Of a stretch of 64,000 nt of DNA, positions 1,217 through 58,435 are shown one piece after another. A program made the position numbers and the translations under genes. How positions within the stretch are numbered: the stretch's first letter is position 1; each line of letters starts with the position of its first letter. The stretch spans positions 32,001 to 96,000 of the IMG/VR virus record IMGVR_UViG_3300050821_004356; one strand, written 5' to 3'. The notes under the pieces were generated by a model, which worked only from the letters and a program-made list of their open reading frames with translations, was not told where the DNA came from and ran no database searches. This DNA is from a virus.

Positions 1217-1672
1217 TCATTCCTCGTCATCTTCGGTAGCTGTAGTCGCTGGCTGAAGTTCAGTATTCTCATAGGAATTCACCTTATCATCATTCTCAAG
1301 ACTTGTCAAGTGATTTTTTACAGTTTCTAAGCCGACGCAATACTCGGCCAAGGCGTTATACGCTTCATCATATGTCGAAAAAGGACCGTTCTCCAAGGCC
1401 CATGTTTCTTCGTAGAACCAAAACGTGCCGTCCGCGTGTTCATGCAGTGGATCGGGGCCGCCCTCGAAGTTACAAACCGGTTTGCTTTTGTCGCGCAACA
1501 AGTCGGCATCGGCCAAGACGCCGAGCGGCTTCACTAGCATCAATTCCATATTGGTGGATTTACCCCTGCGATAGACGACCACCTTTTCGCTGTTTAAATT
1601 TTGAGGCAGTGCTTCGCCGTCAGCTAAGATAACATGGGCTACAATGCCGCCCTGGCCTTTAGCTACTACCAT
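1217..1672 (-). CDS. hypothetical protein
   Basis: 151 aa ORF overlapping the end of the AAA gene. Confidence 0.6.
   Translation of the reverse strand: MVVAKGQGGIVAHVILADGEALPQNLNSEKVVVYRRGKSTNMELMLVKPLGVLADADLLRDKSKPVCNFEGGPDPLHEHADGTFWFYEETWALENGPFSTYDEAYNALAEYCVGLETVKNHLTSLENDDKVNSYENTELQPATTATEDDEE
1281..1309 (-). promoter_or_regulatory. sigma70-type promoter
   Basis: TTGACA-17 nt-TAAGGT with extended -10 TG on the minus strand. Confidence 0.6.
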
Positions 1673-52400: not shown

Positions 52401-52658
52401 ATGTGGCTGACATTTAAAGAGCGGATTATCGTGCCGACAAATGTAGAGCGCCTCAAAAAGGTTCTCCCAGAGAAGACGGTCGAAGCTCTTGTCGAGGCTG
52501 CTGAAAAGGTCCAAGACAAGTTCGACGCCGATCCCAGCTTGAAAGATTTGTACCCCGGGTATAGTTCGTTGCTGAACGAGATCGCGAAGAACGTAAAGAC
52601 TCCGGAAGCGGACGAAAAGAAGTTTGAAATAGTGCTTGACAAACGATCTAACCCGTAG
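52401..52658 (+). CDS. hypothetical protein
   Basis: follows promoter. Confidence 0.55.
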   Translation: MWLTFKERIIVPTNVERLKKVLPEKTVEALVEAAEKVQDKFDADPSLKDLYPGYSSLLNEIAKNVKTPEADEKKFEIVLDKRSNP

Positions 52659-54056: not shown

Positions 54057-54132
54057 GGTGTCCGTAGTGTAGTGGCTAGCACGCGGGCCTGTGAAGCCTT
54101 AAGGTTGGTTTCGAATACCAAGGGACACCCCA
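54057..54132 (+). tRNA. tRNA-His(GTG)
   Basis: cloverleaf, G-1:C73, CCA. Confidence 0.85.
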
Positions 54133-54151
54133 TATTTTTAAAGATAAGTGC

Positions 54152-54180
54152 TTGACAAAGTTTTAAGATCGCGATACAAT
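54152..54180 (+). promoter_or_regulatory. strong sigma70 promoter of the tRNA array
   Basis: TTGACA-17-TACAAT. Confidence 0.85.
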
Positions 54181-54192
54181 GTTTTTGTAAAT

Positions 54193-54271
54193 CGAGGAAT
54201 GGGGAAGTCTGGCCGTTCCCGCTGCTTTCGGAAAGCAGAGATCGTTGATTCGAATTCAACTTCCTCGACCA
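54193..54271 (+). tRNA. tRNA-Pro(CGG)
   Basis: CGAGGAA/TTCCTCG acceptor, loop TT CGG AA, CCA. Confidence 0.9.
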
Positions 54272-54273
54272 GT

Positions 54274-54347
54274 CGGGCGTTCTGATAGTGGTAGTCTCCG
54301 TGCTTTGGAAGCATGTGGCGTGTGTTCGATTCACACATGCCCGACCA
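54274..54347 (+). tRNA. tRNA-Pro(TGG)
   Basis: cloverleaf, CCA. Confidence 0.88.
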
Positions 54348-54540
54348 TTTTATTAAGTTTGGACCCAACATGTCTGATCATGACAGACGCTCGCGCGCTG
54401 GTAAGGGCACCGGGTCCAATTGCGATAACCTTAAAATTCTGACCGGTACGGTTTAGAAGCCGGTATCGCAACGAGCCTCGGCGTCGGCTCACTAAAATAT
54501 AGACGCCAGGATTTAAGTCCAGCACGGAGAAGCTATTGTG

Positions 54541-54647
54541 TTGGCGGATCAGACGGAAATGTGGGTTCGAATCCCACGGGCTATAACAGGTGAGTCAGCC
54601 GTGTATACGGCACCTGAGCCTTTAGTGCAATGGTAGCACGCCGTCAA
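54541..54647 (+). ncRNA. circularly permuted tRNA-like RNA (Y RNA/YrlA-like)
   Basis: order T arm (GTGGG TTCGAAT CCCAC), closed acceptor-like stem, D arm (GTGC AATGGTA GCAC); flanked by GACGG/CCGTC. Confidence 0.7.
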
Positions 54648-54656
54648 ATTTTCTAT

Positions 54657-54741
54657 TCCCGAGTGGCGGAATGCATACGTAACGCGTTTAGACCGCGTCG
54701 CTCGAAAGAGATTGTGGGTCCAAGTCCCACCTCGGGAACCA
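54657..54741 (+). tRNA. tRNA-Leu(TAG)
   Basis: long variable arm, CCA. Confidence 0.9.
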
Positions 54742-54748
54742 ATTTTGT

Positions 54749-54823
54749 GGCTCTCTCGTTCAATGGAGAGGACGTTCGGTTTCTACCCGAACAATGTCGG
54801 TTCGATTCCGACGGGGGCTTCCA
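54749..54823 (+). tRNA. tRNA-Arg(TCT)
   Basis: cloverleaf, CCA. Confidence 0.9.
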
Positions 54824-54829
54824 AGTTTT

Positions 54830-54905
54830 GGGTCTATCGTCCAAAGGGACAGGGCTCGGGTTTCCTAAACCCGCAATCACGGTTCGATCCCGTGTGGACC
54901 CTCCA
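54830..54905 (+). tRNA. tRNA-Arg(CCT)
   Basis: cloverleaf, CCA. Confidence 0.9.
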
Positions 54906-54911
54906 GTTTAT

Positions 54912-54987
54912 GGGCTTCTCGTCTAACAGGACAAGGCTCTGGTCTTCGAAACCAGCTATCGCGATTCGAGTTCGCGGAGGCCCTCCA
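54912..54987 (+). tRNA. tRNA-Arg(TCG)
   Basis: cloverleaf, CCA. Confidence 0.9.
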
Positions 54988-54992
54988 GCTTT

Positions 54993-55068
54993 GAACTTGT
55001 CATCTAACGGGACAAGGTGCAGCCCTGCGAAGGCTGATATCACGGTTCGAGTCCGTGCAGGTTCACCA
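54993..55068 (+). tRNA. tRNA-Arg(GCG)
   Basis: CAGCC CT GCG AA GGCTG, CCA. Confidence 0.88.
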
Positions 55069-55076
55069 TTTTTAAT

Positions 55077-55161
55077 CCGCTGCTGGCGAAACGGCAGACG
55101 CATCCGCCTCAAGAGCGGACGCCTAAACAGCGTGAAGGTTCGAATCCTTCGCGGCGGACCA
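55077..55161 (+). tRNA. tRNA-Leu(CAA)
   Basis: long variable arm, CCA. Confidence 0.9.
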
Positions 55162-55169
55162 AGTTCTGT

Positions 55170-55249
55170 GGGTGGTCCCGCGCACCGCGCGGCTCTGTGA
55201 TGAAGCTAGACTAGTCACAGGATGAGTGGTGAGATTCCACGACTTCCCA
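55170..55249 (+). ncRNA. non-canonical cloverleaf (tRNA mimic)
   Basis: four stems, T-like loop TGAGATT, 14-nt loop in the anticodon position. Confidence 0.5.
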
Positions 55250-55259
55250 GATTTTCAAT

Positions 55260-55349
55260 TGTCGGTTGCGAAGGTTCGTGGCAGAGTCTTATAAACTCTT
55301 CGGGCCAGATAAGCCTTGCCGGAAAGATCGTTACTTTCATCGACAACCA
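55260..55349 (+). tRNA. atypical tRNA with TAT anticodon (Ile-AUA reader?)
   Basis: TGTCGGT/ATCGACA acceptor, AGAGT CT TAT AA ACTCT, long variable region, T loop ATCGTTA, CCA. Confidence 0.7.
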
Positions 55350-55353
55350 ATTT

Positions 55354-55437
55354 GAGCGTGTGGCGGAAAGGCATACGCAGGGCACTTAAAATGCCCCGTC
55401 GAAAGACATGAGGGTCCGAATCCCTCGGCGCTCACCA
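55354..55437 (+). tRNA. tRNA-Leu(TAA)
   Basis: long variable arm, CCA. Confidence 0.9.
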
Positions 55438-55442
55438 AGTTT

Positions 55443-55516
55443 GCATGAATCGACAAGTGGTAAGTTAGCTGTTTGCAAAACAGCCATCAGTGGTTCGATT
55501 CCACTTTCATGCTCCA
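55443..55516 (+). tRNA. tRNA-Cys(GCA)
   Basis: U73, CCA. Confidence 0.92.
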
Positions 55517-55599
55517 AGTTTGGGCACCTGACACCTAACAGTGGCAGGGGAAAGTCCAAAACGTTTTCGCACGGTCAACGAAAGACGGTGCTACATTTT

Positions 55600-55877
55600 G
55601 GTAGCGTAGACGAACGCGGCGAGAAACCCGAGAGGGCTATAAGCCGAGGAAATTCAGGCCACATCTCAACATCGAACGGTGGAAGCTGCCGGACGCGTAA
55701 GCGTACAAGTAAGGCTCGATACCGAAAGGTCATTCAAGTCGAGTAACTCTTTTCGGGTGTAAGCGCAAATAGGCTCTGAGAACTTGTTGAGTTTGATGAA
55801 GAGCGGGTAGCGTGCTTCGCGAAAGCGACTAGAGAGGAATGTTCGTTCTAGACAGAAGCCTGATTATAGCGTCACCA
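55600..55877 (+). ncRNA. rnpB: compact RNase P RNA
   Basis: P2 GACGAACG/TGTTCGTT, P3 CGGC/GCCG, CR-I GAGGAAATTCAGGC pairing (P4) with CR-V ACAGAAGCCTGATTA, CR-IV CTAGAGGAATG. Confidence 0.82.
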
Positions 55878-55890
55878 AAATAATTTTCAA

Positions 55891-55966
55891 GTGTCTGTAG
55901 CTCATTCAGTAGAGCACTCGGCTCTTACCCGAGGGGTGGTTGGGGCAGAGCCAACCAGACGCACCA
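55891..55966 (+). tRNA. tRNA-Lys(CTT)
   Basis: cloverleaf with atypical T loop GGCAGAG, CCA. Confidence 0.85.
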
Positions 55967-55968
55967 AT

Positions 55969-56043
55969 GGAGTGCTAGTGTCAAAGTAGCACAGCGGCCT
56001 TTTAAGCCGACGAGTGTTGGTCCAAGTCCAACGCGCTCCACCA
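55969..56043 (+). tRNA. tRNA-Lys(TTT)
   Basis: cloverleaf, CCA. Confidence 0.85.
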
Positions 56044-56052
56044 ATTTTCTGT

Positions 56053-56128
56053 AGCCTGTTAGCAAACTGGCCGTATGCACCTCGCCTACACCGAGGCCGG
56101 AAGAGTTCGATTCTCTTACGGGCTACCA
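56053..56128 (+). tRNA. tRNA-Val(TAC)
   Basis: loop CC TAC AC, CCA. Confidence 0.88.
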
Positions 56129-56237
56129 ATTTTCGATTGCCCGGTTGCTTACGGCGACGGTGTAGATGAGTGTGTCGGAACCGAGAGGCCGTAAATACTC
56201 CACGGCGGCATTCACCGCAATCGAATTAATTTTCTGT

Positions 56238-56312
56238 GGCGATGTCATCTAGTGATTAGGATGCTTGCTTCTCAAGCAAGTCACGCGGGTTTGAATCCCG
56301 CCGACGCTACCA
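56238..56312 (+). tRNA. tRNA-Glu(CTC)
   Basis: cloverleaf with acceptor mismatches, CCA. Confidence 0.85.
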
Positions 56313-56321
56313 AGTTTCAGT

Positions 56322-56395
56322 GCCGCTATCTGCTATGGATAGGCAACGAGACTTTCAATCTCGTAGACAGGGTTTGAGTCCCTGTAGCGGTACCA
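56322..56395 (+). tRNA. tRNA-Glu(TTC)
   Basis: cloverleaf, CCA. Confidence 0.9.
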
Positions 56396-56405
56396 ATTTT
56401 ACAGT

Positions 56406-56481
56406 GGGCAGTTAGTGTTAAATGGGAGCACGTGTCGCTTGCACCGACAAAGTGAGGGTTCGAATCCGTCACAGTCCACCA
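56406..56481 (+). tRNA. tRNA-Ala(TGC)
   Basis: G3:U70, CCA. Confidence 0.9.
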
Positions 56482-56492
56482 ATTTTTCCTGT

Positions 56493-56568
56493 TGTCGCGG
56501 AGCACATGTGGACGGGCGCTCGCTCGATAAGCGAGAGGTAGGTGGTTCGAATCCACCGGCGACAACCA
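56493..56568 (+). tRNA. tRNA-Ile(GAT)
   Basis: loop TC GAT AA, CCA. Confidence 0.85.
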
Positions 56569-56584
56569 ATTTTTGCGGTGACAT

Positions 56585-56827
56585 ATGACGATAGCAGACG
56601 CAGCATCAGTTGCGGCACTAGCAGTCGATTTGATTGCCTTGTGGTTCCTGATTGGGATTTGGAAAGATGATCATGCGATGAGAGTCGCATCGGAAGAGTC
56701 TTTGAAGGCCCAGTTAGAGTATCTTGGATTGCGCCGTAAATGGTACGAAGGCCGCACCAAGAAAAAGGACGAAAAGAATGTCGCTCAGTCTAGACCAGAA
56801 GATGGCACTGACGCGAACAGTCTGTAA
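56585..56827 (+). CDS. small membrane protein inside the tRNA array
   Basis: N-terminal TM helix. Confidence 0.55.
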   Translation: MTIADAASVAALAVDLIALWFLIGIWKDDHAMRVASEESLKAQLEYLGLRRKWYEGRTKKKDEKNVAQSRPEDGTDANSL

Positions 56828-56891
56828 CATTCTTGGAGTCATCATCTCAATCATCTACGTTGTGTGGGTGATGAGTAAATAAATTTTCAAT

Positions 56892-56978
56892 TGTAGGGTC
56901 GACTAGCGGCCGATGTCGCGGGTCTCATAAGCCCGATGCGAAAGCACACCGTGGGTTCGAATCCCACCTCTGCAACCA
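56892..56978 (+). tRNA. tRNA-Met(CAT), initiator-like, with long variable arm
   Basis: CGGGT CT CAT AA GCCCG; TGC GAAA GCA variable hairpin; CCA. Confidence 0.85.
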
Positions 56979-56985
56979 ATTTTGA

Positions 56986-57060
56986 GCGAGGCTGATGTTA
57001 GTGGTAGCATGTCAGTCTTCCAAACTGAACGGACGAGTTCGAGTCTCGTGCTTCGCTCCA
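56986..57060 (+). tRNA. tRNA-Gly(TCC)
   Basis: GCG/CGC, U73, CCA. Confidence 0.92.
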
Positions 57061-57065
57061 ATTTT

Positions 57066-57139
57066 GCTTTGTTAGTTCAACGGTAGAACGCGTCCTTGGT
57101 AAGGATGAGGTAAAGGTTCAATTCCTTTACGAAGCTCCA
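57066..57139 (+). tRNA. tRNA-Thr(GGT)
   Basis: cloverleaf, CCA. Confidence 0.92.
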
Positions 57140-57146
57140 GTTTTGA

Positions 57147-57222
57147 GCACGGCTCATACAGCGGCCTAGTATGCGAAGCTTGTACCTTCGACACGTTGGT
57201 TCAAATCCAGCGCTGTGCTCCA
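57147..57222 (+). tRNA. tRNA-Thr(TGT)
   Basis: cloverleaf, CCA. Confidence 0.9.
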
Positions 57223-57324
57223 ATTTCTAGAACGTGGAACCGCGAGTCTGTGGAATGGCGGATAGTGCAGACCTGAATAATGCTCCGGTACTCCGGAGAC
57301 GCGAACGCCCCACGAGATTTATGA

Positions 57325-57398
57325 GCACTGCTAGTCTAGTGGCAGGACACTCCCCTCGTAAGGCAGAGGCAACTGTTCGATTCAGTTGCGGTGCTCCA
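57325..57398 (+). tRNA. tRNA-Thr(CGT)
   Basis: cloverleaf, CCA. Confidence 0.88.
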
Positions 57399-57471
57399 AG
57401 TTTTGTGCTGTGACATAAAACACATCGGTGAGAGGCGTCCATAGACCCACCGAGGCACAAAAGTTTTCTGA

Positions 57472-57545
57472 GCGATGTTGGTATAGTGGTAGCACGAGAC
57501 CTTGCCAAGGTCTAGGCACCGTTTCGATTACGGTACGTCGCTCCA
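57472..57545 (+). tRNA. tRNA-Gly(GCC)
   Basis: cloverleaf, U73, CCA. Confidence 0.9.
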
Positions 57546-57554
57546 ATTTTCTGT

Positions 57555-57643
57555 GGATGGTTAGCTCAAGCGGCAACGACACTTGGCTGTAAACCAAGCG
57601 GTCCTAGCGACCTTCCGAGGTTCGAGTCCTCGACTATCCACCA
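57555..57643 (+). tRNA. tRNA-Tyr(GTA)
   Basis: long variable arm, CCA. Confidence 0.92.
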
Positions 57644-57654
57644 TAATTTTCTAC

Positions 57655-57742
57655 TGGGGTGTGGCTCAATTGGTACAGCACCTGACTGTTAATCAGGCAG
57701 AGTTAACGCTCATTATAGGTTCGAATCCTATTGCCCCAGCCA
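57655..57742 (+). tRNA. tRNA-Asn(GTT) with long variable arm
   Basis: CCTGA CT GTT AA TCAGG, G73, 17-nt variable region. Confidence 0.88.
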
Positions 57743-57750
57743 TTTTAAAC

Positions 57751-57828
57751 GGAGATGTCGCGTAGAGGCCTATCGCACTCCCCTGTCACGGGAGATCATC
57801 GTGGGTTCGAATCCCATCATTTCCGCCA
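57751..57828 (+). tRNA. tRNA-Asp(GTC)
   Basis: G73, CCA. Confidence 0.92.
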
Positions 57829-57836
57829 TTTTCAAC

Positions 57837-57911
57837 AGGTCGGTAGTGTAACGGTAACATCACGCACTCCAAACGCGTCGGATGGGGGTTCGAGTCCCTC
57901 CTGACCTGCCA
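57837..57911 (+). tRNA. tRNA-Trp(CCA)
   Basis: AGG/CCT, G73, CCA. Confidence 0.92.
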
Positions 57912-57919
57912 ATTTTTAC

Positions 57920-58010
57920 GGAAGGTTGACGGAACCTGGCTAACGTATAGGTTTGCTAAACCTAAGTCAACCGAAAGGTTGTTTGTGTTCAAATCACAAA
58001 CCTTCCGCCA
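57920..58010 (+). tRNA. tRNA-Ser(GCT)
   Basis: long variable arm, G73, CCA. Confidence 0.9.
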
Positions 58011-58015
58011 TTTAC

Positions 58016-58099
58016 GGAGGATGCCGCTCAAGGGGGCAATCCGGTTTGAACCCGGAGGGCGCTGTAAGGCGCGGTGTTCGATTCATCCTTCCTCCTCCA
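58016..58099 (+). tRNA. tRNA-Ser(TGA), probable 8/4 fold
   Basis: GGAGGATG/CTTCCTCC 8-bp acceptor (one U-U), 4-bp T stem GGTG/CATC. Confidence 0.8.
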
Positions 58100-58192
58100 T
58101 ATTCTACGCTCGTGGCTGAAATGCCGTTTGGTGTAGACACACCCTAACGGGGACTGAGCACCGTCGCTAACAGTATAAAATTGGGGCGACAT

Positions 58193-58266
58193 CCCTTGTA
58201 GGTGTAACGGTAGCACCTTCCGTTGAAGCCGGAAAGGACGTGGTTCAATTCCACGACTCGGGACCA
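58193..58266 (+). tRNA. tRNA-Phe(GAA)
   Basis: cloverleaf with two acceptor mismatches, CCA. Confidence 0.8.
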
Positions 58267-58274
58267 TTTTCAAT

Positions 58275-58350
58275 TGGGATGTAGTTTAACTGGCAAAATA
58301 GTCGGCTTTGAACCGACCAGATGAAGGTCCGAATCCTTCCGCCCCAACCA
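58275..58350 (+). tRNA. tRNA-Gln(TTG)
   Basis: U1:A72, CCA. Confidence 0.9.
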
Positions 58351-58359
58351 ATTTTCAAT

Positions 58360-58435
58360 TGCCAAGTGGCGCAACTGGTAGCGCAGGCGGCTCTGAACCG
58401 CAAGGCTGATCGTTCGAATCGATCTTTGGCAACCA
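58360..58435 (+). tRNA. tRNA-Gln(CTG)
   Basis: U1:A72, CCA. Confidence 0.9.

Follow-up and report, generated by a model that had tools for sequence, protein, structure and literature searches.

Introduction

RNase P RNA is the ribozyme that trims the 5' end of new tRNAs and is among the few ribozymes common to all cellular life; to our knowledge, it has been treated as a strictly cellular or organellar housekeeping gene. In the known type A enzymes, J11/12, P13 and P14 bind the tRNA elbow, and in type B RNAs P5.1, P10.1 and P15.1 stand in place of the type A helices. The archaeal type T RNAs (Pyrobaculum) and the engineered Min1 and Micro-P RNAs have little or no specificity domain (S-domain) and still cleave pre-tRNA, usually with weaker binding. 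Reduced type A RNase P RNAs without P12, P13, P14 and P18 have been described in CPR bacteria, where the default Rfam search misses them, and some cellular members tolerate the loss of P13, P14 and P18 (PMC8172020). The RNase P-like RNA of orthopoxviruses (camelpox), which has a partial structural resemblance and does not cleave pre-tRNA in vitro, is the sole earlier proposal of a virus-encoded RNase P-like RNA that we found in the literature (PMC3001073). No description of a phage-encoded RNase P RNA was found in the full-text literature, subscription journals being outside the scope of that search.

Here, we analyse a 64,000-nt stretch of viral DNA (the window; bases 32001-96000 of an IMG/VR record), in which a first-pass annotation, made from the sequence alone, had proposed a minimal phage-encoded RNase P RNA. 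We establish the identity of this RNA, its fold, its conservation under selection, its genomic context and its presence in RNA libraries.

The phage genome and its tRNA array

The IMG/VR record comprises 111,567 bp with direct terminal repeats and is rated 100% complete. It is a genuine tailed phage, encoding a primase, a helicase, a DNA polymerase and a 'DNA transfer protein' like A1 of T5, together with a terminase large subunit, a portal and a major head protein whose genes lie outside the window; the RNA is thus phage-encoded, as had been proposed. The nearest cultured phages, which have unrelated hosts, share at most 46% identity in one protein (the A1-like protein). The phage DNA is present in soil metagenomes. 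The features of the locus at large are as follows.

54058..58435, + strand: tRNA array of 33 genes, the presumed substrates (ARAGORN and Rfam)
54152..54180, + strand: best sigma-70-like promoter upstream of most of the array, TTGACA-17-TACAAT (consensus only, 11/12)
55549..55597, + strand: conserved 5' leader (10/14 homologues)
55598..55882, + strand: phage RNase P RNA gene, type A, with reduced S-domain, 285 nt (RF00010)

All genes of the array are on the + strand, 32 of them called by ARAGORN and one by Rfam only. Every one of the 33 encodes its 3' CCA, and most spacers are A/U-rich and only 2-11 nt long, so that one RNase P cut is needed per tRNA. The RNase P RNA gene sits between a tRNA-Cys (ending at 55516) and a tRNA-Lys(CUU) (55891-55966). 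A consensus scan found its best promoter-like sites upstream at 52636 and 54152 and, on the + strand between tRNA-Cys and the RNase P gene, no promoter-like site; in the absence of such a site of its own, co-transcription of the gene with the tRNAs is inferred to be likely. On the opposite (-) strand, a sigma-70-like TTGAAA-16-TATAAT lies across the 3' end of the gene (55863-55890), which is probably a chance match in an A/T-rich spacer. Several gaps of 98-323 nt also interrupt the array (54348-54656, 55162-55259, 56129-56237, 56569-56891 and 58011-58192). They may hold further small RNAs; compared with Rfam, they gave nothing above a weak tRNA-Sec-like match (58016-58095, 25 bits).

Identification of the RNase P RNA gene

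The bacterial type A model RNaseP_bact_a (RF00010) matches 55598-55882 (+) from end to end (model positions 1-367) with 90 bits in E-value mode. The E-value is 3.4e-28 in a 401-nt stretch and 5.9e-27 in 7 kb, and this is the single RF00010 match in the whole 111.6-kb genome. The RNase P features at 55600-55877 are far above chance. A default Rfam scan at the gathering threshold (100 bits) reported tRNAs only in the window and no RNase P match, since the gene falls 10 bits short of that score; the deficit is due to deleted S-domain helices, not to mismatches in the core. A search with bacterial RNase P models had been suggested as a check in the first-pass annotation, and its outcome is a match, albeit one below the gathering score. 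Single-sequence minimum-free-energy folding of the gene gave an uninformative z = -1.56, and blastn of the gene and of its homologue L176 against 50,697 deposited phage genomes returned zero matches. Open reading frames run across the gene (112 aa on the + strand; 52 and 57 aa on the - strand); coding was rejected given the RNA covariation described below.

Homologues and covariation

Relatives were gathered via the A1-like protein, which yielded 56 viral contigs, and 40 whole records were searched with RF00010. Full-length matches were found in 12 of the 40, eleven of them 276-327 nt long and one of 376 nt. Homologue scores ranged from 79.6 to 126.8 bits, and four of the eleven reduced copies passed the gathering cut-off. 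Each copy is embedded in a tRNA array and shares the strand of the tRNA genes, its usual neighbours being tRNA-Cys or tRNA-Leu on one side and tRNA-Lys on the other, so that the location first noticed in the window holds for every relative carrying the gene. Among complete relatives, those without the RNA have 0, 2 and 4 tRNAs, as against 25, 33 and 43 in the carriers. Further contigs were obtained with a probe for the conserved 5' end. The bare 14-mer probe (GAGGAAATTCAGGC) has at least 115 matches, all but one of them by chance, the real copy being L005; two matches of a 17-mer 5' probe (L195 and L196) were rejected as chance occurrences within coding sequence. In L180 and L183, ARAGORN calls a 'tmRNA' at 1299-1596 (-), which overlaps the RNase P RNA at its 3' end as well as two tRNA-Lys genes, and this call is almost certainly a false positive.

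Covariation was assessed in 14 distinct homologue sequences, using a MAFFT alignment and the Rfam model, over a structure comprising P1, P2, P3, P4, P5/7, P6, P8, P9, P10/11, P15, P16 and P17. With this structure, 96.1% of the alignment cells are paired and 41 of 70 pairs have both partners changed. Sliding the partners by 1-3 columns lowers these figures to 34-40% of cells and 11-16 pairs, and none of 500 shuffles reached the observed pairing or covariation values. RNAalifold recovered the RNase P helices, chose P4 unprompted and found 42 of 67 pairs to be compensatory. The fold is under purifying selection, and covariation over 14 copies rules out a decaying pseudogene. Together with the full-length model match, it bears out the RNase P RNA identity given in the first-pass annotation.

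The reduction is graded among lineages: L176 retains J11/12-like and GUGAAA motifs, and a 300-kb record (G020) has a complete 376-nt RNA that scores 255 bits. The latter copy (L175; G020:C1:41519-41894) is a full-size type A RNA with P12-P14 and P18 intact and with tRNA genes nearby. G020 itself is a viral record of 299,875 bp with direct terminal repeats, 43 tRNAs and no RnpA, whose status as a jumbo phage is unchecked.

Architecture of the RNA

The elements of the RNA are listed below, with pairing and covariation referring to the 14 homologues.

55599..55607, + strand: P1 5' strand, partner 55869-55877 (alignment columns 2-10 with 376-384)
55609..55615, + strand: P2 5' strand GACGAAC, partner 55841-55847 (98.9% paired; 2 compensatory pairs in L185)
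55617..55646, + strand: P3 hairpin, of varying length among homologues (stem base covaries, 3/5 pairs)
55646..55659, + strand: CR-I GAGGAAA and P4 5' strand, with the bulged U at 55654
55667..55671, + strand: J5/7 CAACA, the P6 5' strand, partner P17 loop UGUUG at 55785-55789
55677..55704, + strand: P8 (55677-55691) and P9 with GUAA tetraloop (55693-55704), both 100% paired
55708..55750, + strand: P10/11 around the P12 remnant ACC-GAAA-GGU (55721-55730), then the family-specific joiner CAUUCRAG
55759..55815, + strand: P15-P16-P17 arm with L15; CCA-binding GGU at 55806-55808
55816..55830, + strand: short P18, CGC-GAAA-GCG
55852..55865, + strand: CR-V ACAGAA and P4 3' strand (GCCUGAUU), ACA-AA invariant

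The C-domain is entire, with P1-P5, P15-P17, the P6 pseudoknot, CR-I, CR-IV, CR-V, the bulged U and the L15 GGU. The P1-P4 features had been annotated at 55600-55877, and these coordinates (about 278 nt) correspond to the span from P1 to P1. P1 is paired in 92.8% of cells, with three pairs changed on both sides. In P4, UCAGGC (55654-55659) faces GCCUGA (55858-55863), three pairs being changed on both sides relative to the E. coli consensus, which confirms the compensatory changes noticed earlier; among the homologues P4 is 100% paired and five of its eight pairs covary (pair 104/368 is A-U in seven sequences and C-G in the other seven, and pair 107/365 occurs as four pair types). The CR-IV and CR-V landmarks were likewise found, as CGGGUA at 55804-55809 and ACAGAA at 55852-55857, in addition to CR-I from 55646. 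GAGGAA and the bulged U of P4 are invariant in 14/14 homologues, as is the CGGGU of L15. We take the catalytic-core nucleotides to be GAGGAA, the P4 bulged U, AAAUAGG, CGGGU, AGAGGAAUG and ACAGAA, and all of these are invariant here.

The helices P15-P16-P17 with the P6 pseudoknot, our criterion for type A, are present. P15 and P16 are 100% paired, with 4/6 and 3/4 pairs covarying, and P17 is paired in 92.8% of cells. P6 is 91% paired and has a compensatory G-C in L189; in L176, as read from the sequence, GAGCA pairs with UGCUC. Also kept is the cruciform P7-P11, including P8 and P9 with its GUAA loop, covariation being found at all four pairs of P9 and at five of the six pairs of P10/11. An additional hairpin is inserted between P2 and P4 in four homologues, and P18, present in the window, L181 and L185, is missing from the other 11 homologues.

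The S-domain is reduced, as the first-pass annotation had it. In the covariance-model alignment, J11/12 (CR-II), P13 and P14 are missing, and P12 has shrunk to a 10-nt stub; 13 nt stand in place of the 28 model positions of P12, and 12 nt in place of the 49 positions of P13/P14. A complete S-domain (J11/12, P12, P13, P14 and CR-III) is therefore not present, and only a CR-III-like AGUAACUC remains. Without J11/12, P13 and P14, unaided substrate affinity may be poor. The earlier term 'minimal' is nevertheless an overstatement, given that P8, P9, P10/11, P15-P17 and P18 are all kept.

Distribution in viruses and cells

A strict pattern, consisting of CR-I, 120-150 nt, CGGGU, 25-55 nt and CR-V with the P4 positions left free, recovered 33 further reduced copies in viral contigs. 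All 33 have six of six complementary P4 pairs at the free positions, and 31 adjoin co-oriented tRNAs. As a control, one genome for each of 185,579 prokaryotic species was searched, which gave 65 pattern matches, 23 of them passing the P4 test; the genuine cellular matches are mostly stand-alone genes in metagenome-assembled genomes (MAGs) of Limnocylindria and Elusimicrobia. Three MAG contigs, assigned to Micromonosporaceae (L278), Acidimicrobiia (L286) and an 'uncultured archaeon' (L294), carry a reduced RNA amid 8-15 co-oriented tRNAs, L278 with five of six P4 pairs, and have the look of phage contigs that were binned with MAGs. A profile built from the RNA family of the window aligned, along most or all of its length, with another seven viral contigs and with L294, which makes L294 a member of that family; against cellular genes, the same profile matched the universal core only.

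In three cultured phages with 8-28 tRNAs, no RNase P RNA was found. A GenBank record, MW495066.1 ('Microcystis phage MaAM05'), has an unannotated full-size RNaseP_bact_a match (L236, 115284-115683, 251.8 bits). Its neighbours are annotated as engB and mtgA and are cellular in look, which leaves the viral nature of the record in question.

Transcripts and the 5' leader

Three soil metatranscriptome runs contain parts of the array, and over a 5.5-kb stretch their coverage is highest at the gene or almost confined to it. In run X3, an adapter-flanked contig (55549-55866) reaches depth 57, as against 0-10 over the rest of the stretch; run X10 offers a 278-nt contig (55592-55869) and otherwise just two 18-20-nt pieces of one other contig; and run X4 has a 540-nt contig (55533-56071). 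The DNA run X2, by comparison, covers the entire stretch, with a word depth of about 0.4-10, and includes a single contig that spans the gene without a break (55379-56264). The profile of the RNA runs is unlike uniform DNA carry-over, which indicates that the RNA accumulates. This evidence consists of assembled contigs, from which neither strand nor ends nor true abundance can be read, and all three runs may stem from a single campaign. On the 5' side the contigs end at 55533, 55549 and 55592 and on the 3' side at 55866, 55869 and 56071; we read these positions as no more than hints to the ends of the RNA, and give no weight to the parts of the array left uncovered in the RNA runs.

The contigs, given their starts at 55533, 55549 and 55592, include the stretch of the conserved 5' leader. 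Two elements make up this leader: a CGUU at 55562-55565, which is invariant, and a hairpin at 55571-55589 whose two closing pairs covary and whose AACGAAA loop (55577-55583) is likewise invariant. This loop is complementary to the CGUU upstream of it and contains a repeat of ACGAA from the P2 5' strand. The leader may serve to signal processing, may be a 5' domain that the RNA retains, or may act as a switch in folding.

Function and alternative explanations

We consider it likely, with good confidence, that the gene specifies a functional phage type A RNase P RNA, most likely working with host RnpA on the phage tRNAs. That it catalyses cleavage, which protein it works with and how the phage benefits are inferences. 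The RNA would have originated from a bacterial type A RNase P RNA by loss of most of the module that reads the tRNA elbow, and would be transcribed together with the phage tRNA array. Once assembled with host RnpA, an inferred step, the holoenzyme would cut the short 5' leaders off the phage's 33 pre-tRNAs, while their encoded 3' CCA would be held by the retained L15 GGU motif, with which the CCA in all 33 tRNA genes is in keeping. The outcome would be a tRNA 5'-maturation capacity of the phage's own during infection. The host RNase P RNA is reported to be stable during T4 infection and may process phage tRNAs (PMC9697503), so that the need for an extra copy is not obvious.

As for the partner, RnpA (PF00825) gave no match at E<=1 in the window phage or in four complete relatives, and in G020 the only PF00825 match (11.7 bits over 20 residues) is noise. 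The first-pass annotation had the RNA borrowing host RnpA or a small phage protein. The absence of RnpA from these six complete genomes, the window phage and five carrier relatives, agrees with borrowing from the host, whose use itself remains an inference, if the simplest one; as the host is unknown, compatibility with its RnpA cannot be judged.

Two related alternatives involve the lost elbow-reading module. The more elaborate is an orthogonal tRNA-maturation system of some phages, centred on a virus-evolved RNase P ribozyme, in which this loss co-evolved with tRNAs altered at T-loop positions 55 and 56, with control by the leader hairpin and, perhaps, with a phage factor or no protein at all, a proposal that we regard as unlikely. 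If it were true, host enzymes or host tRNA-targeting defences may act poorly on the altered tRNAs, and the AACGAAA leader hairpin, repeating part of the P2 strand, would control the folding or processing of the ribozyme. The other, which appears to us quite unlikely, is a specialised or orthogonal RNase P adapted to substrates with which the host enzyme copes badly, for which the tRNAs with altered 55/56 elbows and the non-tRNA structured units of the array are the candidates; it may use an unrecognised phage protein, or none, in place of host RnpA. The lack of an encoded RnpA and the fact that the lost part is the elbow-reading module both speak for such specialisation, as does the neighbouring tRNA-Lys(CUU), yet no candidate phage protein was found. 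That tRNA has a strongly aberrant T loop (GGCAGAG), is missed by ARAGORN and scores 43.7 bits with Rfam.

Positions 55 and 56 of the T loop are elbow nucleotides, and we counted the tRNAs changed at either of them. Such variants make up 36/219 tRNAs (16%) in the window family and 8/13 (62%) in the L176 lineage, which would favour a specialised enzyme, compared with 38/368 (10%) in other carriers of reduced RNAs, 2/104 (2%) in four comparator phages (0-4% individually) and 0/19 at random viral loci; a naive Fisher test of family against comparators gives p = 6e-5. The variants have C or G at 55, or U, G or A at 56, and reach 15 of 27 tRNAs in the viral contig L208. Against specialisation, 78% of the tRNAs of the window phage have canonical T loops. 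Furthermore, a variant tRNA occurs at 12/12 loci of the family and at only 10/26 loci of the other carriers, leaving 16 without any, and the correlation cannot be separated from shared ancestry. The association of the reduced S-domain with non-standard T loops, suggested in the first-pass annotation, is thus real for the window lineage (16% versus 2%), is not general and is confounded by shared ancestry; as a general rule linking the two, it was not upheld outside that lineage.

A decoy or sponge, that is, a non-enzymatic RNA that binds host RnpA or other partners and diverts or stops host tRNA maturation, seems very improbable. The protein-binding C-domain is kept while substrate-binding parts are lost and no RnpA is encoded by the phage, as a decoy would have it, and a role of this kind was once discussed for the poxvirus RNase P-like RNA (PMC3001073). 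A decoy has no need, however, of the active-site nucleotides, the bulged U, the GGU or the P6 pseudoknot, which are all invariant or covarying, and the gene goes with large phage tRNA arrays, which depend on RNase P themselves. That the gene is a host rnpB in decay after its capture, or came into a viral contig as host DNA through mis-assembly, is hardly credible despite the sub-threshold Rfam score and the deletion of whole helices, in view of the same syntenic place in many independent contigs (several complete with direct terminal repeats), the purifying selection on the fold evident from covariation, the unbroken X2 DNA contig over the gene and the universal core as the only part shared with stand-alone cellular pattern matches.

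Significance

If the functional reading holds, a conserved and transcribed viral copy adds a catalytic RNA (catalysis being inferred) to the translation-related functions of phages, which include tRNAs, tmRNA and tRNA-repair enzymes. It raises the question of whether phages need their own, or a differently specific, 5'-maturation for large tRNA arrays. Such copies are natural experiments in how far the ribozyme can be trimmed, and, being short (266-327 nt) and available in many variants, they could serve structural and mechanistic work on recognition without a full S-domain. Standard annotation misses such genes because they fall below the Rfam threshold.

Comparison with known systems

The closest match in structure is E. 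coli M1 RNA (rnpB, RF00010), with which the phage RNA has in common P1-P11, P15-P17, the P4 and P6 pseudoknots, CR-I, CR-IV and CR-V, as well as the bulged U of P4, the CCA-binding GGU of L15 and the GNRA loop of P9. Unlike the bacterial type A RNAs, it is viral, is located in a tRNA operon and measures 285 nt rather than about 350-400 nt; it lacks J11/12, P13 and P14, has P12 as a stub and a P18 that is short, or absent in relatives; and it scores below the gathering threshold and has no cognate rnpA in its genome.

The reduced RNAs of CPR bacteria (PMC8172020) and of Limnocylindria and Elusimicrobia resemble it in having a type A core, the strict pattern being found in about 20 cellular genomes. 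In contrast to the phage RNA, these are the single housekeeping copy of the cell and are not beside tRNA arrays, and they have the universal core alone in common with the phage family. Compared with type T, Min1 and Micro-P, the phage RNA is less reduced, as it keeps the P7-P11 cruciform with P8 and P9, and it is of bacterial type and viral. We know of no tRNA arrays in poxviruses, and, in comparison with the camelpox RNA, the phage RNA has its whole catalytic core conserved and covarying.
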